IMG/VR virus record: IMGVR_UViG_2565956709_000006
DNA from: a virus
Lineage: Duplodnaviria; Heunggongvirae; Uroviricota; Caudoviricetes
Reading direction: 5' to 3' (one strand)
DNA: 36,173 nt
Positions 3,693 through 36,173 of the stretch are shown piece by piece. How positions within the stretch are numbered: position 1 is the first letter of the stretch; each line of letters begins with the position of its first letter. The position numbers and the translations under genes are program-made. A model generated the notes under the pieces. It was not told the DNA's origin. It did no database searches and saw nothing but the letters and a program-made list of their open reading frames with translations.

Positions 3693-3768
3693 GGCCCTTT
3701 AGCTCAGTGGTGAGAGCGAGCGACTCATAATCGCCAGGTCGCTGGTTCAAATCCAGCAAGGGCCACCA
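3693..3768 (+). tRNA. tRNA with anticodon CAU (tRNA-Ile2-like, lysidine type, or Met)
   Basis: Hand-folded cloverleaf: acceptor GGCCCTT/AAGGGCC, D-arm GCTC..GAGC, anticodon loop CTCATAA (anticodon CAT), T-arm GCTGG-TTCAAAT-CCAGC, 3' CCA. Closely resembles E. coli ileX-type tRNA. One A-C mismatch at the top of the anticodon stem. Confidence 0.85.
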
Positions 3769-3775
3769 TCACATA

Positions 3776-3852
3776 CCGCCATTAGCTCATCAGGAAAGAG
3801 CGCCAGCCTTCGAAGCTGGTTGCGCGGGGTTCAAGTCCCCGATGGCGGTCCA
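3776..3852 (+). tRNA. tRNA-Arg (anticodon UCG)
   Basis: Hand-folded cloverleaf: acceptor CCGCCAT/ATGGCGG, anticodon stem CCAGC/GCTGG with loop CTTCGAA (anticodon TCG), T-arm CGGGG-TTCAAGT-CCCCG, 3' CCA. Confidence 0.8.
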
Positions 3853-3865
3853 TTATCTGCATCAT

Positions 3866-3942
3866 GCGTTGTTAGCTCAGCCGGACAGAGCAATTGCCTT
3901 CTAAGCAATCGGTCACTGGTTCGAATCCAGTACAACGCGCCA
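3866..3942 (+). tRNA. tRNA-Arg (anticodon UCU, reads rare AGA)
   Basis: Hand-folded cloverleaf: acceptor GCGTTGT/ACAACGC, anticodon stem ATTGC/GCAAT with loop CTTCTAA (anticodon TCT), T-arm ACTGG-TTCGAAT-CCAGT, 3' CCA. Confidence 0.8.
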
Positions 3943-28733: not shown

Positions 28734-29333
28734 ATGCGTAAATTATGTGCTGTTATTTTGTCCGCAGTAGTCTGGCAGGTCGCCGCTGCTACGCCAGCGA
28801 GTGCAGCAGAACATCAGTCCACGCTGAGCGCGGGGTATCTCCATGCCTCGACGAACGTTCCCGGTAGTGATGATCTGAACGGGATTAACGTGAAATACCG
28901 TTATGAGTTTACGGACACGCTGGGGCTGGTGACGTCATTCAGTTATGCCAATGCCAAAGATGAGCAAAAAACGCATTACAGCGATACCCGCTGGCATGAA
29001 GATTCCGTGCGTAACCGCTGGTTCAGCGTGATGGCGGGGCCGTCTGTGCGCGTGAATGAATGGTTCAGCGCGTATGCGATGGCGGGTGTGGCTTACAGCC
29101 GTGTGTCGACTTTCTCCGGGGATTATCTCCGCGTAACTGACAACAAGGGGAAAACGCACGATGTGCTGACCGGAAGTGATGACGGTCGCCACAGCAACAC
29201 GTCTCTGGCGTGGGGGGCTGGCGTGCAGTTTAACCCGACCGAATCCGTGACCATTGACCTTGCTTATGAAGGTTCCGGTAGTGGCGACTGGCGAACGGAT
29301 GCATTTATTGTTGGTATCGGATACCGTTTCTGA
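28734..29333 (+). CDS. lom: Lom/Ail-family outer membrane beta-barrel protein (moron)
   Basis: 199-aa ORF with signal peptide (MRKLCAVILSAVVWQVAAATPASA), alternating beta-strand pattern and C-terminal ...GIGYRF. Flanked by terminators on both sides, as in lambda. Confidence 0.9.
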   Translation: MRKLCAVILSAVVWQVAAATPASAAEHQSTLSAGYLHASTNVPGSDDLNGINVKYRYEFTDTLGLVTSFSYANAKDEQKTHYSDTRWHEDSVRNRWFSVMAGPSVRVNEWFSAYAMAGVAYSRVSTFSGDYLRVTDNKGKTHDVLTGSDDGRHSNTSLAWGAGVQFNPTESVTIDLAYEGSGSGDWRTDAFIVGIGYRF

Positions 29334-29438
29334 CAACAGACGCCGATTTATCTTCTGTAAATATTGTTATGATACGCAGGTTCATCCACCTTATGGGGTG
29401 AACTGCGTTTGAGGAAACGTAAAGTTACACTGTCCTGA

Positions 29439-29470
29439 AGCCCGTGGCGTCACTGCTGCGGGCTTTTTTT
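29439..29470 (+). terminator. Rho-independent terminator after lom
   Basis: AGCCCG ... CGGGCT stem followed by TTTTTTT. Confidence 0.55.
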
Positions 29471-29484
29471 ATTGGTGGAAAAGT

Positions 29485-32391
29485 ATGACAGTAAAAATTT
29501 CTGGCGTGCTTAAAGATGGCACAGGAAAACCAGTACAGAACTGCACCATTGTGCTGAAGGCCAGACGAACCAGCAGCACGGTGGTGGTGAACACGGTGGC
29601 CTCTGAAAATCCGGATGAAGCCGGACGTTACAGCATGGATGTTGAGCATGGTCAGTACAGCGTCACCCTGCTGGTTGAAGGTTTTCCGCCTTCACATGCC
29701 GGGACCATTACCGTCTATGAAGGTTCCAGACCAGGTACGCTGAATGATTTTCTCGGTGCCATGACGGAGGATGATGTCCGACCGGAGGCACTGCGCCGCT
29801 TTGAGCAGATGGTGGAAGAGGTGTCACGTAACGCCTCCGCGGTTGCACAGAATACGGCAGCCGCGAAAAAATCAGCCAGCGATGCCAGTGCATCAGCCAG
29901 CGAGGCGGCAACTCATGCAACCGATGCTGCAGCCTCAGCACGTGCCGCCAGCACGTCAGCCGGACAGGCCGCGTCGTCGGCTCAGTCAGCGTCTTCCAGC
30001 GCAGGAACGGCATCGACAAAGGCCCGTGAAGCAGCAAAAAGTGCTGCTGCTGCAGAGTCATCAAAAAGCGCGGCAGCTACCAGCGCCAGTGCCGCGAAAA
30101 CGTCAGAAACGAATGCCGCAGCATCACAAAAATCGGCAGCCACTTCTGCATCCACAGCGACCACGAAGGCGTCAGAAGCTGCCACCTCGGCACGGGGTGC
30201 GGCGGCCTCAAAAGAGGCAGCGAAATCATCAGAAACGAACGCATCATCAAGCGCCAGTAGTGCCGCTTCCTCGGCAACGGCGGCAGGCAATTCCGCGAAG
30301 GCGGCAAAGACGTCTGAGACAAACGCCAGGTCTTCTGAAACGGCAGCGGGACAGAGCGCCTCGGCTGCGGCAGGCTCAAAAACAGCGGCTGCGTCGTCTG
30401 CCAGTGCCGCGTCAACAAGTGCCGGGCAGGCCTCAGCCAGTGCCACCGCCGCCGGAAAATCGGCAGAAAGCGCCGCATCATCCGCTTCAACAGCCACAAC
30501 GAAGGCTGGCAAAGCCACTGAGCAAGCCACTGCAGCAGCGAGGTCTGCTTCTGCAGCAAAAACCTCTGAAACAAATGCAAAGACTTCAGCAGACAATGCT
30601 GCTTCCTCTAAGGCGGCAGCCGCATCGTCAGCCAGTTCAGCGGCGTCATCGGCATCATCTGCGTCTGCTTCAAAAGATGAGGCGACCAGACAAGCGTCAG
30701 CAGCGAAAGGTAGTGCCACGACAGCAACAATGAAAGCATCAGAGGCAGCTGGTAGTGTGACGGCGGCAGCTCAGAGCAAAAGTACGGCGGAATCCGCGGC
30801 AACGCGCGCCGAGACAGCAGCAAAACGGGCAGAGGATATTGCATCCGCCGTGGCGCTGGAGGATGCGAGCACGACGAAAAAGGGGATAGTACAGCTCAGC
30901 AGTGCGACCAACAGCACTTCCGAGTCACTGGCGGCAACGCCAAAAGCGGTTAAGGCGGTAATGGGTGAAACGAACAAGAAAGCGCCCTTAAATAGTCCTG
31001 CACTGACCGGAACGCCAACAACACCAACTGCGCGACAGGGAACGAATAATACCCAAATCGCAAGCACGGCTTATGTTATGGCTGCGATCGCTGCCCTCGT
31101 GGACTCGTCGCCTGACGCACTGAATACGCTGAACGAGCTGGCTGCGGCGTTGGGCAACGACCCGAATTTTGCGACCACCATGACTAACGCGCTTGCGGGT
31201 AAGCAACCGAAAGATGCCACCCTGACGGCGCTGGCCGGGCTTGCTACTGCGGCAGACAGGTTTCCGTATTTTACGGGGAATGATGTTGCCAGTCTGGCAA
31301 CCCTGACAAAAGTTGGGCGGGATATTCTTGCGAAATCGACCGTTGCCGCCGTTATCGAATACCTCGGTTTACAGGAAACGGTAAACAAGGCTGGTAACGC
31401 CGTTCAGCGTTCCGGCGATAAAATGACCGGAGAACTGAAAATTGGCACGGTGAATGCGCTGCGAATTTTCAATGATGCCTTCGGTCTTATTTTCCGTCGT
31501 TCAGAAGATTTTCTTCATTTCATTCCGACGGCTGAAGGACAAGGCGAAAACGGTGATATAGGCCCATTAAGGCCATTCGCTATAAATCTGAGAACAGGTG
31601 CTATATCTGTCAGCCACGGGGCCAAAATTGATGGTGGGCTGGCGCTTGGTACAGATAACGCACTGGGCGGTAATTCCATTACTCTCGGAGATAACGACAC
31701 TGGTATTAAACAGGGCGGCGACGGTGTCCTTTTATTCTATTCAAATGGACAACTGGCATTTGGACTTCAACCCGCATCTGCTGATTTTTATAAGCGGGTT
31801 GCATATATTCATCAGGGAATAATTCCTGATGGAAGTGGCGCATTTGCAGACCAGTTGAATAATGCCACCGCGCCTTTTGTTCAGACGCAGTTTGCCTGGA
31901 ATCCCACTCCTGGTGGTCATTACGTGCCGATAGTTAAGGGCTTGTCCATTCGCAATGGACAGGGCTATCCCGGCGCGGTCAGCTTTGGGTATTTACTGAC
32001 AGAACAGTATGGATTTCCGGTTCCATGTATTCATATGCGTGGCGATGGCGGTAATGATGCTTTATGGCAGTTTAACCCGAACGATAAATCCTTTATTTCA
32101 CCGGGTGCTCTTATTGCGGGTGGCGTCCGTTATAACACCGATGGAAATATATTTGGTGGGTGCTGGGGTTCAAACTTAAATGATTACCTGAATAGTTCTT
32201 TTATCAGAAATGTGCGTCTGGGAGGCAGACGTTCTGACACATTATATCGCGGAGGACTTTGCGAACCAGGTAATGGTCATGTGACAACAGGATTGCAAAT
32301 TATTGGTGAGGTTGATGGAGATGACTGGATGGTGTCACGACCACTACAAAAATACATTTCTGGTAACTGGTATAACGTTGAACAGGCATAG
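29485..32391 (+). CDS. stf: side tail fibre protein (constant N-terminal part, Ala/Ser-rich repetitive shaft, variable C-terminal tip)
   Basis: 968-aa ORF. Conserved prophage Stf N-terminal domain (MTVKISGVLKDGTGKPVQNCTIVLKA...), then about 330 aa of low-complexity Ala/Ser/Thr-rich repeats (recurring KTSETNA units). The C-terminal third begins at a gix-like recombination site and shares the motif ALGGNSI.LGDNDTG.KQ with the silent alternative tip on the opposite strand. Confidence 0.9.
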   Translation: MTVKISGVLKDGTGKPVQNCTIVLKARRTSSTVVVNTVASENPDEAGRYSMDVEHGQYSVTLLVEGFPPSHAGTITVYEGSRPGTLNDFLGAMTEDDVRPEALRRFEQMVEEVSRNASAVAQNTAAAKKSASDASASASEAATHATDAAASARAASTSAGQAASSAQSASSSAGTASTKAREAAKSAAAAESSKSAAATSASAAKTSETNAAASQKSAATSASTATTKASEAATSARGAAASKEAAKSSETNASSSASSAASSATAAGNSAKAAKTSETNARSSETAAGQSASAAAGSKTAAASSASAASTSAGQASASATAAGKSAESAASSASTATTKAGKATEQATAAARSASAAKTSETNAKTSADNAASSKAAAASSASSAASSASSASASKDEATRQASAAKGSATTATMKASEAAGSVTAAAQSKSTAESAATRAETAAKRAEDIASAVALEDASTTKKGIVQLSSATNSTSESLAATPKAVKAVMGETNKKAPLNSPALTGTPTTPTARQGTNNTQIASTAYVMAAIAALVDSSPDALNTLNELAAALGNDPNFATTMTNALAGKQPKDATLTALAGLATAADRFPYFTGNDVASLATLTKVGRDILAKSTVAAVIEYLGLQETVNKAGNAVQRSGDKMTGELKIGTVNALRIFNDAFGLIFRRSEDFLHFIPTAEGQGENGDIGPLRPFAINLRTGAISVSHGAKIDGGLALGTDNALGGNSITLGDNDTGIKQGGDGVLLFYSNGQLAFGLQPASADFYKRVAYIHQGIIPDGSGAFADQLNNATAPFVQTQFAWNPTPGGHYVPIVKGLSIRNGQGYPGAVSFGYLLTEQYGFPVPCIHMRGDGGNDALWQFNPNDKSFISPGALIAGGVRYNTDGNIFGGCWGSNLNDYLNSSFIRNVRLGGRRSDTLYRGGLCEPGNGHVTTGLQIIGEVDGDDWMVSRPLQKYISGNWYNVEQA
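31352..31377. repeat. left crossover site (gix/pix-like 26-bp inverted repeat) inside stf
   Basis: TTATCGAATACCTCGGTTTACAGGAA. Matches the reverse complement of 34433..34458 at 22 of 26 positions and resembles the known gix/pix consensus (TTCCTGTAAACCGAGGTTTTGGATAA). Confidence 0.8.
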
Positions 32392-32406
32392 CCATCAGGA
32401 GAATAT

Positions 32407-32934
32407 ATGCAACATCTGAAAAATATTACCGCCGGAAACCCCAAAACCATTGAGCAGTATCAGCTTACGAAAAAAGCTGGCGTTATCTGGCTATATACAG
32501 AAGACGGTAAAAACTGGTATGACGAATTAAAAAACTTTCAGGATGATACTTTAAAAATAGCTTATGACCAGAAGGGGATTATTCGTTGTATTGAGAAAGA
32601 CGTATCAACACTTAACCCTGACGGGTTAAGTGTTGTTGAGTTACCGAATATAACAGCCAACCGTCGCGCCGATATCTCGGGAAACTGGAAGTTTCTGGAT
32701 GGTAAAGTAGTAAAGCGGGAATATACAAAACAGGAACTGCAACAGCAGGCAGAGTTACAAAAAGCCGCTTTGCTTTCCGAAGCGGAGTCTGTGATTCAAC
32801 CGCTGGAACGTGCTGTCAGACTGAATATGGCAACTGATGAGGAACGCACACGACTGGAATCATGGGAACGCTACAGCGTTATGGTCAGCCGTGTGGATAC
32901 TGCAAAGCCTGAATGGCCACAGAAACCAGAATAA
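32407..32934 (+). CDS. tfa: tail fibre assembly protein (expressed copy)
   Basis: 175-aa ORF with RBS AGGAGAATAT, directly after stf. Tfa-family N-terminus ([38 protein letters not shown]). Paralogous to the convergent minus-strand copy. Confidence 0.9.
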
Positions 32935-32944
32935 CAACAAATTA

Positions 32945-32965
32945 AGGCCCGTACGGGCCTTTTCT
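32945..32965. terminator. bidirectional terminator between the convergent tfa genes
   Basis: Palindrome GGCCCG-TA-CGGGCC flanked by A/T runs. Confidence 0.6.
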
Positions 32966-33498
32966 TATTCTGGTGGTTCCGGGAATGTTACAGGAAGAAC
33001 CGAGGTATCAGTTGTCTCAACCTGTTGCACGTATCGCATCCAGTTCATCAGTTGCTGTCTGTCTGAATCAGTGATAATCCCCAAAGTAAGCTGTGTTTGC
33101 CAGAACTGCGTTTTTTCTCTGGCCTGCTGTAATAATATTTTTTTCTGGTTTTCCGTCTGTAGGCGCAACTCTTCTTCGGTATATACACGTTTAATGACTG
33201 CGCCATCTTTAAACATCCATTTACCTGAGTCGTCAGCACGCCGGTTGGCGGTAATATCAGGAATCTCAACGACGCTATAACCTTCAGGGTTAAGTGTGGA
33301 GGCATCTTTGGTTATGGCAACAATAATATTATTTTCATCGTAAACAATCTTTATGGTGTCTGGCTGAAAGTTTTTCACTTCCTCATACCAGTTTTTTTCG
33401 TCCTCAGAGTAAAGCCAGATAACTCCGTGTTTCTTTGTTAACTCATACTGTTCCAGTGTTTTAGCATTACCCGCTTTTATGTTCTTTAAGTGCATCAT
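32965..33498 (-). CDS. tfa: tail fibre assembly protein, alternative (silent-orientation) copy
   Basis: 177-aa minus-strand ORF ([38 protein letters not shown]...) paralogous to tfa; inverted orientation inside the invertible segment. Confidence 0.85.
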
Positions 33499-33499
33499 A

Positions 33500-34432
33500 T
33501 TAAACGCTCGCTACATTATACCAGGTGCCATTTATATACTTTTGAACGGGTCTGTAATAAACGCCCGCTATATTATCGGCAGAGTTAGACCCTGTATCCT
33601 GAACATTAATACCAGACAATACATGACCTGAAGGGCACCGGAAATACCATGTTTGCCAGTTGTTCACTCCATAATATTGCTGTGAACCAAGTCGAACATC
33701 TTTCACATAACGGGAATCAAAGTTACCGTAATCCGAGGGGTTAACACGCCCTGTAATATTTATGGTTTTATTACTTTGAATGCTTCCGGAGACAAAGCGC
33801 ATAACATGGACGTTATTAGCATAAACATCCAGATTACCATCGCCATTTTGTTTAAAGCCCGTGTCATTATCACCCAATACAATCGAATTACCGCCAAGAG
33901 CACTGGATGTTCCGATACCCAGTGTACCATTCAGTTGACCACCAGATAACGGCAGTGCACCAACATCTCCTGCTGAAGGTTTTCTGGTGGTGGTGTAAAA
34001 TTCGGACCAGTCGGCTTCAAAACCATAACCATCACGGGCTGAACGATAAAAAACACCGCCATTTTTATAATTAATCCGAAACTGAGCTGCAGGACAACTT
34101 CCTTCTCCCATATAAAAATGAATAATTAACGTTGATGCACCACTAATAGTTGCGTTATAGGCTCCGCTACTCCAGTTCCATCCAACTGCTTTATCATTCG
34201 CAACGGTGCTTCCTGTTTTCCCTAAGGCAAACGCACCAACATGACTTGCTTTTAATGTGATATCGGAGGAACCATCAAAAGCCACATTGCTTATTTTCCT
34301 GGCAGTTTTTAATTTTGCAGCTGTAGAAGCATTGCCGGATAGTTCACCAGAAAGGCCACCGCTGAATGTTTGTCGATTAGTCCAGGTATTCGCTGTACTG
34401 AGTAACGGTATTTTCTCCCCGCTTGTGCCGAG
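33500..34432 (-). CDS. alternative side tail fibre C-terminal segment (promoterless silent cassette; fuses to the stf constant part after inversion)
   Basis: Minus-strand frame open from the right crossover site (manual translation from 34450 downward: [17 protein letters not shown]...AFDGSSD...) to the stop at 33500. In-frame with stf across the crossover core (CTC GGT TTA). Shares [22 protein letters not shown] with the expressed tip. The track lists only the part from an internal GTG (33500..34285). Confidence 0.75.
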
Positions 34433-34458
34433 TTCTCGTAAACCGAGGTTTTAGATAA
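34433..34458. repeat. right crossover site (gix/pix-like 26-bp inverted repeat)
   Basis: TTCTCGTAAACCGAGGTTTTAGATAA, inverted partner of 31352..31377, located just upstream of the pin gene as in Mu G / P1 C / e14 invertible segments. Confidence 0.8.
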
Positions 34459-34512
34459 TGGCGGTTTCTGGCCTGTATGGCATGATTTGTGCTTTTGGAC
34501 GGGAGATTCAGC

Positions 34513-34745
34513 GTGCTGATTGGCTATGTAAGGGTATCAACAAATGACCAGAATACAGATCTGCAACGAAACGCTCTTGTTTGTGCAGGATATGAACAAA
34601 TATTTGAAGATAAATTAAGCGGAACAAGGACAGGCCGACCTGGATTAAAACGTGCTTTAAAGCGCCTTCAAAAAGGTGACGCACTGGTTGTCTGAAAACT
34701 GGACTGACTGGTTCACTGTATGCGGCATCTTGTCGTGCTGGTGGT
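34513..34745 (+). pseudogene. pin: pin-type serine DNA invertase, inactivated (nonsense mutations and 3' truncation)
   Basis: GTG start. The first 59 codons encode VLIGYVRVSTNDQNTDLQRNALVCAGYEQIFEDKLSGTRTGRPGLKRALKRLQKGDALVV (catalytic Ser in YVRVST). Then TGA where the family has Trp, a second in-frame TGA four codons later, and after about codon 76 the sequence runs into a tfa 3' fragment. The resolvase catalytic core and C-terminal HTH are missing. Confidence 0.8.
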
Positions 34746-34746
34746 G

Positions 34747-34887
34747 GAAGCCTGGAAAAAGTATCGGGTGTTGCTGAACCGTGTTGATACATCAACTGCA
34801 CCTGATATTGAGTGGCCTACGAACCCTGTCAGGGAGTAATCATTGGGATTATGCCGCAGCACGTCTTAAGCAAGAACGTGCTGCGGT
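34747..34887 (+). repeat. direct repeat copy A: tfa 3' end fragment plus hairpin
   Basis: Encodes ...[30 protein letters not shown]-stop, followed by an 11-bp-stem hairpin (CCGCAGCACGT ... ACGTGCTGCGG). About 88 percent identical to 35796..35938, including an identical 39-nt core CGTGTTGATACATCAACTGCACCTGATATTGAGTGGCCT. Confidence 0.8.
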
Positions 34888-34893
34888 TGGATG

Positions 34894-35562
34894 CTATTTT
34901 TTCCCTGAAGCGGAAAACATTACTACAGTACCTTGAACCTTGGTTTTAACATTCTCGAAATGCTCTGAGAGTATATGTGTTAAGCCTTCTTCGGAATCTT
35001 TTGTGTTTGAAAAGATGCCTTTCTGATTGTAAATGCGCATCAGTTTTTGACCGAAGCTATTGTGCACAACTCCATCGCCAAGAATTGTGGCTCCGTATAG
35101 AGTTCCATCGTCAGTTAAGGCCTGCGCCGCATTGCGTATTACACAGCTTTTTGTAGATATATTTCCAGGCAGGCAGTGAAGAAGGTAAAACATGGAAATG
35201 GAATCAAATTGACCATGTAACGCCGCGGGATAAGGTTCAAAAACATCATGGCTAATTTTATGTTTAATTTTTGATTCCCCAGCCCTTGTAGATGCCGCGT
35301 TCAGGCTAGCTTCGTTCAAATCCATTAAAGATATCAGACTACTCTCAGGTACGTGAGTAAGGTAAAACCCAGTTCCAACACCAATATCCAGATGGTTGTT
35401 ACCTACATGTTCCAGAAAGTGTGGAAGAAGGTGTTCCTTTGTAGGACATCCCCATGCAAGCCGATTTGATACTCCCAAAACCCACCAGTCATAAAGCTTT
35501 AGGGTAAGTGGTGTGTAAATTTTAGCCCCATCATCTGTGTTTTTTTTCATTGATTTCACCAT
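34894..35562 (-). CDS. class I SAM-dependent methyltransferase (small-molecule/protein/RNA type, not a DNA MTase by motifs)
   Basis: 222-aa minus-strand ORF (alternative start at 35550 has the better RBS). Motif I LDIGVGTGFY, acidic post-I residue (LMDLNE), motif II FDSISMFYLLHCLP, motif III LTDDGTLYGATIL. AT-rich relative to the phage structural genes. Bracketed by direct repeats. Confidence 0.7.
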   Translation of the reverse strand: MVKSMKKNTDDGAKIYTPLTLKLYDWWVLGVSNRLAWGCPTKEHLLPHFLEHVGNNHLDIGVGTGFYLTHVPESSLISLMDLNEASLNAASTRAGESKIKHKISHDVFEPYPAALHGQFDSISMFYLLHCLPGNISTKSCVIRNAAQALTDDGTLYGATILGDGVVHNSFGQKLMRIYNQKGIFSNTKDSEEGLTHILSEHFENVKTKVQGTVVMFSASGKK

Positions 35563-35618
35563 GTTATAGTTTTATTTGTGAATTAAATCAATTATGGCGA
35601 TGAATTACAAGGGGTTAA

Positions 35619-35888
35619 ATGCTGCCGCAGCATAGCGATATTGAAATAGCCTGGTATGCTTCGATACAGCAGGAGCCGAATGGCTGGAAGACCGTCACCA
35701 CACAGTTCTACATCCAGGAATTCAGTGAGTATATTGCGCCACTGCAGGATGCTGTAGATCTGGAAATCGCAACGGAGGAAGAAAGATCGTTGCTGGAGGC
35801 ATGGAATAAATATCGGGTATTGTTGAATCGTGTTGATACATCAACTGCACCTGATATTGAGTGGCCTGCAAATCCTGTCAGGGAGTAA
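35619..35888 (+). CDS. tail fibre assembly protein C-terminal-domain remnant (truncated tfa-like ORF)
   Basis: 89-aa ORF with RBS AAGGGG. The C-terminus ...[37 protein letters not shown] aligns with the Tfa C-terminal region. Lacks the Tfa N-terminal half. Confidence 0.5.
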
Positions 35889-35938
35889 TCATTGGGATTA
35901 TGCCGCAGACACGTCGTATGCAGGAACGTGCTGCGGTT
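35796..35938 (+). repeat. direct repeat copy B: tfa 3' end fragment plus hairpin
   Basis: See copy A. Together the two copies bracket the SAM methyltransferase gene. Confidence 0.8.
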
Positions 35939-36002
35939 AGTTTGTGAGCTTTCGATAGTGGTTGTTATTTTTGCCCTTATTTGTTCCGGAGGCCATGGTT
36001 CA

Positions 36003-36173
36003 ATGGTCCGTCTGCCCCCTGTGGTGATGTCAGCAAAATCAGCCACTGCGCGAACCACAATAGCCCGGGAAGATGCTGAAGATCACCAGGTAAAGCTATC
36101 AGCGCAGAAACTGGAAGAACTGCTCGCATCAATGGTTAAGGATGAGGTTGATCGCAATGATGGGATTTATTGA
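36003..36173 (+). CDS. small hypothetical protein (56 aa) at the window edge
   Basis: Internal ATG of track ORF 35892..36173 with RBS GGAGG 10 nt upstream. Encodes MVRLPPVVMSAKSATARTTIAREDAEDHQVKLSAQKLEELLASMVKDEVDRNDGIY. The upstream part of the track ORF overlaps the repeat hairpin and is unlikely to be coding. Confidence 0.35.
   Translation: MVRLPPVVMSAKSATARTTIAREDAEDHQVKLSAQKLEELLASMVKDEVDRNDGIY

Follow-up and report, generated by a model that had tools for sequence, protein, structure and literature searches.

The window (the whole stretch of DNA that was analyzed, 36,173 nucleotides, to which all coordinates refer unless stated otherwise) carries a side tail-fiber gene whose 3' part lies within an invertible segment, and beyond the segment the remnant of an invertase gene. 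The fiber gene, stf, was identified as an open reading frame at 29485–32391 on the + strand. As now assembled it encodes a protein of 968 amino acids with a match to the Pfam domain phage_tail_N (E = 5e-70). The constant part of stf ends at the crossover point 31364/31365, and the variable C-terminal part occupies 31365–32391. The 968-aa reading frame is intact in Escherichia coli EC958 as well as in the window. In genomes that have the segment in the window's orientation, the PGAP annotation calls only the first 1497 nt of stf, as a pseudogene that is "partial, missing C-terminus". The middle of the gene (29860–30585) is a long low-complexity tract rich in Ala, Ser, and Thr that is built from degenerate 33-nt repeats, and long spurious reading frames cover the same interval in other frames on both strands.

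The invertible tail-fiber segment

The segment is bounded by two 26-bp crossover sites that were located by a search for inverted repeats. The left site, TTATCGAATACC-TC-GGTTTACAGGAA, lies within stf at 31352–31377 (+ strand) and is identical to the site that Forde et al. (2014, PLoS One 9:e104400; PMC4134206) list in Table 3 as Phi4_5prime. The right site, TTCTCGTAAACC-GA-GGTTTTAGATAA, is found at 34433–34458 (+ strand) and is the reverse complement of Phi4_3prime from the same paper (PMC4134206). Both sites are gix-like and are held within a 32-nt imperfect inverted repeat (31346–31377 and 34433–34464), and their central dinucleotides, TC on the left and GA on the right, are complementary. 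Exact copies of the 12-nt core ACCTCGGTTTAC were found in the left site and at 34438–34449 and nowhere else; for a scan that allowed one mismatch, 0.06 occurrences are expected by chance. The two sites are in inverted orientation and agree with the published consensus (PMC4134206).

The fiber tip that is now expressed is followed by its cognate tfa chaperone gene at 32407–32934 on the + strand (175 aa; Pfam Caudo_TAP, E = 9e-35). The silent alternative tfa gene, on the – strand at 32965–33498, encodes 177 amino acids (Caudo_TAP, E = 6e-32) and sits on the + strand right behind stf in strain JJ1886, where the segment is flipped. A GC-rich hairpin that is terminator-like on both strands was found by a hairpin search between the two convergent tfa genes, at 32944–32961. 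The silent alternative C-terminal cassette of stf follows at 33500–34445 on the – strand and was recognized by inversion of the segment in silico and by a match to gp37_C.

When 31365–34445 was inverted in silico, an in-frame fiber of 941 amino acids replaced the fiber of 968 amino acids, and thus both cassettes are intact. The annotations of JJ1886 and of the copy of the prophage at the start of the WS3294A record both show an intact 941-aa Stf. The two fiber cassettes and their tfa genes are mirror images of one another and are in frame with the constant part of stf. A functional invertase gene usually stands adjacent to the segment in switches of the G, C, and P type; the corresponding gene in the window is a pseudogene.

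This locus is prophage Phi4 of the E. coli ST131 strain EC958, already published by Forde et al. (2014; PMC4134206), who described an invertible segment of 3106 bp and a truncated invertase, EC958_1582, without a helix-turn-helix (HTH) domain. The crossover sites of the window map to EC958 coordinates 1484784–1484809 and 1487865–1487890, which are those of Table 3 in that paper. Positions 29109–36173 of the window are 99.3% identical to EC958 1482541–1489605 without a gap. The crossover sites are identical, the same truncated invertase and flanking methyltransferase gene are present in both, and the prophage is found at the same ompW'/trpA end. The differences are limited to a few SNPs, an extra TAG within the tfa fragment of EC958, and an ISEc12 element (IS21 family) in the lom gene of EC958 that is absent from the window. 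Elsewhere in the window, three tRNA genes, Met(CAT), Arg(TCG), and Arg(TCT), are found at 3693–3942 just downstream of a 349-aa reading frame; at a similar position in the WS3294A prophage, a 349-aa DNA methyltransferase is followed by tRNA genes.

The invertase pseudogene and its junction with tfa

The stump of the invertase gene, pin', occupies 34513–34745 on the + strand (codons 1 to 77/78), as delimited by translation, Pfam, a structure-sequence match, and alignment. The translation of 34513–34842 begins VLIGYVRVSTNDQ and retains the catalytic Ser9 within GYVRVST (the Y-V-R-V-S-T motif). The reading frame is interrupted in all of the aligned genomes by TGA at codons 61 and 65. The first stop (34693–34695) stands at a position that is Trp in Gin, Pin, and Cin, and the second (34705–34707) at a position that is a conserved Arg elsewhere in the family. 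Codons 1–60 match the Pfam Resolvase profile (PF00239) with E = 2.9e-15 and cover just positions 2–69 of its 145; positions 2–144 are matched by the intact relatives Phi1 Pin, PinE, and D108 Gin. The domain HTH_7 (PF02796), present in each of these relatives, was not found in the stump by Pfam. With the two stops replaced, residues 2–78 correspond to residues 2–78 of the 193-aa Gin invertase in PDB entry 4m6f (E = 1e-39). The catalytic domain is incomplete, in that the E-helix is gone and homology to Gin stops at residue 78 of 193. When the 36-kb window was searched by tblastn with intact Pin as the query, an invertase-like region beyond the stump was not found. PGAP labels the stump "recombinase family protein, incomplete, missing C-terminus". 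With two nonsense codons, a truncation at about codon 77, and the loss of both the E-helix and the HTH, pin' is a pseudogene.

The two TGA codons and the pin'/tfa' junction are the same in every genome that was aligned. A 521-bp query that runs from the stump across the junction and the tfa fragment into the start of the methyltransferase gene is matched over at least 80% of its length in 426 complete E. coli genomes. These observations rule out chance or a sequencing error as the source of the stops or of the junction. Recoding or read-through of TGA is ruled out by the presence of two stops and by the replacement of the C-terminal half of the gene with tfa sequence. An initial sequence-only reading of the window had described a pin-like gene that begins normally with YVRVST and its catalytic serine, meets an in-frame TGA at the Trp of the family and a second TGA four codons later, runs into a 3' fragment of tfa after about codon 76, and has lost the catalytic core and the HTH. 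That description is upheld throughout, with the junction now placed at codons 77–78, and the concern it raised about sequencing error at the TGA codons is answered by their recurrence across independent genomes. About eight substitutions, relative to both the Phi1 pin gene and e14 pinE, are packed into the 30 nt at 34693–34722. This patch includes both nonsense changes (TGG to TGA and CGx to TGA), and the sequence beside it, 34720–34744, is identical to e14 pinE.

At 34742–34745, pin' is joined to the final 32 codons of tfa. The fused 3' end of tfa (34742–34839, + strand) was recognized as a mosaic joint by repeat analysis and by comparison with strain EC24. From 34742 onward the sequence is a direct repeat of 35791–35908 (91% identical) and is 99.7% identical to the 3' end of the full-length tfa gene of EC24. 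The prophage of EC24 (NZ_CM169477.1) is 100% identical to positions 217–25000 of the window. It has a plain stf gene for a 1025-aa Stf and a full-length tfa gene for a 194-aa Tfa, and it contains neither an invertible cassette nor pin. Homology between the window and EC24 is lost past about 30953 and is regained exactly at 34742, and the comparison shows modular replacement of the fiber region with its right boundary at 34742. The microhomology TGGA(A/G)G is common to the pin-like and tfa sequences at the joint, and the final ~40 nt of the stump are closer to e14 pinE than to Phi1 pin. The return of EC24 homology at 34742, the microhomology, and the pinE-like end of the stump together indicate that the stump is where a P2/Mu-type cassette, grafted into a lambdoid tail-fiber region, ends on the right. 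The foreign DNA, judged against the cassette-less prophage of EC24, extends from about 30953 to 34741 and ends inside pin at the microhomology with tfa. We attribute the graft to illegitimate recombination inside pin, with the two nonsense mutations and the substitutions at 34693–34722 added on top of it.

The region beyond the joint lies outside the switch. A gene for a class I SAM-dependent methyltransferase of 222 amino acids, assigned by annotation and Pfam, is found at 34894–35562 on the – strand between two 3' fragments of tfa. The second fragment (35619–35888, + strand) encodes 89 amino acids that match Caudo_TAP at positions 75–130 of 131. The direct repeats 34742–34859 and 35791–35908, which are tfa 3' ends (91% identical), bracket the methyltransferase gene. 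Matches to this gene with at least 99% identity were found in 3,285 records, and the gene looks like a moron cassette that was inserted or shuffled through recombination between tfa ends. The same module of methyltransferase and tfa fragments is found in another lambdoid prophage, at prfC in NZ_AP022287.1. There the module precedes the frameshifted 3' part of an invertase gene, a remnant different from pin', and next to this remnant lies a gene with the annotation TIR-domain anti-phage reverse transcriptase.

Orientation of the segment in E. coli genomes

The orientation of the segment was determined by using queries that represent the right-hand junction both ways, each running from 200 nt of the segment through the crossover site, pin', and its joint with tfa' into the start of the methyltransferase gene. 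These queries extend to 34900, and a locus with an intact pin gene cannot attain 80% coverage of them. Among complete E. coli genomes with the dead allele, 239 were found to have the segment in the window's orientation and 144 to have it flipped. A shorter query (34096–34760) returned counts of 374 and 152, respectively, and was set aside because the value of 374 is inflated by the Phi1 locus, which matches this query with 91% coverage and 96% identity.

Alignment of EC958 (window's orientation), JJ1886 (flipped), AR_0069, and both copies of the locus in WS3294A demonstrated that the first TGA, the second TGA, and the junction are identical in all of them, and that genomes of the present and flipped orientations diverge exactly at the crossover site. 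EC958 and JJ1886 differ in orientation within ST131 clade C and share two derived SNPs in the fused tfa fragment, at 34759 and 34778, past the junction. Since the same two stops, the same junction, and these shared SNPs are found in both orientations, the inversion is later than the death of the gene. The sequence-only reading had concluded that the fiber segment is fixed in its present orientation. With the same dead allele seen both ways, in the numbers given above, the view of a locked switch is contradicted for the lineage as a whole, in which the segment still inverts though its own invertase is dead.

Two assemblies were found to hold both orientations. In WS3294A (NZ_CP035819.1), the ends of the record overlap by ~16–17 kb of prophage, and the segment lies in opposite ways in the two copies. 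Both termini of the "complete" chromosome record lie within the prophage, and the copy at its start has frameshifts; the duplicated ends look like an untrimmed circularization overlap from a culture of mixed orientation. WS3294A is 100% identical to the window over 34096–34900 and 99.6% identical over 29001–35025. An IS66-family element, ISCro1, is found upstream in WS3294A and is apparently absent from the window. For the strain named O25b:H4, the segment is oriented as in the window in the chromosome (CP015085) and is flipped in a second record, CP015087 (NZ_CP015087.1). This second record is 32,764 bp in length, is described as "extrachromosomal", and contains rluB, the trp operon, ompW', and the flipped end of the prophage with many frameshifts. 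Rather than a plasmid, CP015087 is an alternative contig, and a spurious one, of the CP015085 chromosome.

Coexistence of the two orientations has also been reported at the bench. Forde et al. obtained an alternative PacBio contig of 12.7 kb that placed both orientations in one culture of EC958, and they concluded that the inversion occurs in trans, probably by the action of the Phi1 invertase, since the crossover sites of Phi1 are nearly identical; the alternative orientation of Phi1 itself was present in ~50% of the reads (PMC4134206). In a preprint on ST131 wound isolates, PCR and restriction digestion confirmed switching in a lambdoid "BP-4795-like" prophage that is without an invertase, and a P88-like prophage with its own invertase was found to switch as well. 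The lambdoid prophage of that preprint is only possibly Phi4.

We assign a probability of roughly 85% to the complete model, in which a Gin/Pin-type cassette resides in a lambdoid prophage, has lost its own invertase, and is inverted in trans. It has to be weighed against a switch that was frozen in the window's orientation when its invertase died. The invertase is indeed non-functional, another one was not found in the 36-kb window, and the segment would be frozen in a genome without any Din-family invertase. We nevertheless regard a frozen switch as very unlikely for this locus, given that the identical dead allele occurs both ways, including within ST131 clade C, that single assemblies hold both orientations, and that heterogeneity at the locus has been published at the level of reads (PMC4134206). 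The segment might instead have inverted in the distant past, before the invertase died, with both forms since inherited or moved by homologous recombination and none of the inversion ongoing. The two stops and the junction common to both orientations make this history highly improbable, as do the SNPs that EC958 and JJ1886 share, the mixed orientations in single cultures and assemblies, and the PCR-confirmed switching within one isolate in the preprint; in its favor, population counts alone cannot date the flips, and some of the flipped genomes seem to be without a Phi1-type pin gene.

The enzyme need not be a site-specific invertase if RecA-dependent homologous recombination between short inverted repeats turns the segment around. 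The 32-nt imperfect inverted repeat would be available for such an exchange, as would the two tfa genes, which are inverted copies of one another with ~70% identity. The repeat is just 32 nt in length, however, with a match of 84%, and is a poor substrate for RecA. The exchange point falls inside a canonical 26-bp Din crossover site, and the sites fit the consensus for Mu, P1, and e14. The reported proportion of Phi1 reads in the alternative orientation, together with the separate contig for Phi4, implies a rate far above that of RecA events (PMC4134206). We consider recombination by RecA to be the least probable of these explanations.

Inversion in trans and the putative enhancer

The sequence-only reading had allowed for a Gin/Pin/Cin-family invertase elsewhere in the genome that acts in trans, and this is what the evidence indicates: both orientations are found, Forde et al. 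proposed as much, and the Phi1 enzyme is intact. The Phi1 invertase of EC958 (EC958_RS04620, 957668–958267 in that genome) is a protein of 199 amino acids with both the Resolvase and HTH_7 domains of Pfam. The stump is ~96% identical to the 5' end of its gene. The similarity extends further, since 33179–34703 of the window (1525 bp) is 96% identical without a gap to the Phi1 region of EC958; this interval covers part of the silent tfa gene, the silent fiber tip, the right crossover site, and the stump to just beyond the first TGA. Of the listed genomes with the locus, in either orientation, at least 30 contain with 100% identity the 3' half of Phi1 pin, which is missing from the stump.

The flipped genomes 4/0, MLI121, MLI114, and Ec-U5 gave one megablast match only to a query with the 5' end of pin and seem to lack a Phi1-type pin gene. 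These four genomes may have a more divergent invertase, or Phi1 may have been lost after the flip, or the inversion may be a past one. A search in the distant mode with a chimeric query, composed of the 3' half of Phi1 pin and the methyltransferase gene, gave extra matching places in H105, AR_451, and 4/0, with four places in all in 4/0. This query is poor at ranking because many of the genomes that match share a methyltransferase gene with 100% identity.

In the model that we favor, a Din-family serine invertase supplied in trans would bind the 26-bp sites at 31352–31377 and 34433–34458. Its likeliest source would be the co-resident P2-like prophage, called Phi1 in EC958, with its Gin-like invertase of 199 amino acids. 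Together with Fis on the putative enhancer that survives in the stump (34531–34602), the invertase would assemble an invertasome, in which the DNA is cut at the central TC/GA dinucleotide and the 3.1-kb segment is turned around. The rotation would exchange the C-terminus of Stf (fiber of 968 or 941 amino acids) along with the cognate Tfa chaperone. We infer that the Phi1 invertase is probably the working enzyme and that the putative enhancer of the stump is required. Cross-action among Din invertases is well documented, for example, at the P segment of e14 with PinQ and PinR (PMC12529663).

Wild-type Din invertases require a Fis-bound enhancer in cis (PMC3798978). Wild-type Hin is inactive without Fis or the enhancer, which in that system is 65 bp in length and lies ~100 bp from one of the sites (PMC3798978). 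In the GenBank record for P1, the enhancer is annotated at nt 19–90 of cin, and by homology to it the putative recombinational (Fis) enhancer equivalent of the window was assigned to 34531–34602, with candidate 15-bp Fis cores at 34534–34548 and 34583–34597. This stretch starts ~85 bp from the center of the right crossover site and is well upstream of the first TGA. Compared with D108 gin or with the intact pin of Phi1, the first 108 nt of the stump have just two differences. Given this homology, its position, and its near-identity to functional genes, the stump probably still supplies the putative enhancer. Excess conservation of 34531–34602 relative to Phi1 pin was not found, with 2/72 mismatches inside the stretch and 12/196 in the flanks, a difference that is not significant.

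Whether the stump was retained for this purpose is a more tentative matter. The first ~90 bp of pin' may have been kept by selection as the Fis enhancer for an invertase that acts in trans, which would make the prophage dependent on it, and we hold this to be possible but rather doubtful. If it is true, a lambdoid prophage has come to rely for its host-range switch on an invertase that a co-resident P2-like prophage encodes, and the switch would be truly locked only in hosts without any Din-family invertase. Neither the enhancer nor the origin of the truncation is discussed by Forde et al. (2014; PMC4134206). Our additions to the published account are small and consist of the ratio of orientations in the population, the origin of the truncation as a mosaic joint, the enhancer-equivalent stretch that the stump retains, and the two assembly artifacts.

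A dead recombinase gene is not the same as a dead switch. Paralogues encoded by other prophages can act on the cis sites, and it is therefore unsafe to describe a segment as "locked" or "phase-fixed" from a local window. The flipping of the segment yields assembly artifacts in "complete" genomes, in the form of duplicated ends and spurious "extrachromosomal" contigs, and leads PGAP to call an intact 968-aa fiber gene a partial pseudogene. The switching of fiber tips in resident prophages may affect phage host range and, by analogy with recent work on e14, may affect resistance to other phages. The significance of the present findings extends little beyond correct annotation.

The arrangement in the window resembles the G segment of Mu and D108, in which the constant part of the fiber gene, a site, Sv-tfa, tfa'-Sv', a second site, and an invertase gene that reads away from the segment follow one another. 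The stump is 93.6% identical in DNA to the 5' end of D108 gin and 69% identical in protein over the aligned part, and the crossover core of the window is gix-like. In Mu and D108, however, an intact Gin works in cis on the phage that encodes it, whereas the window has a stump in a lambdoid prophage that is not Mu-like. The P segment of e14 in K-12 is similar in that it is a fiber segment served by the invertases of other prophages, with PinQ and PinR acting in addition to PinE (PMC12529663), but e14 retains a functional PinE. Positions 34477–34748 are just ~74% identical to pinE DNA overall, and the last ~25 nt of this interval are identical. In the C segment of P1, the enhancer lies within the coding sequence of cin and the homologous stretch is kept in the stump. 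The P1 gene differs from the stump in that DNA identity is ~70%, cin reads toward the segment, and the enhancer is ~500 bp from cixL.
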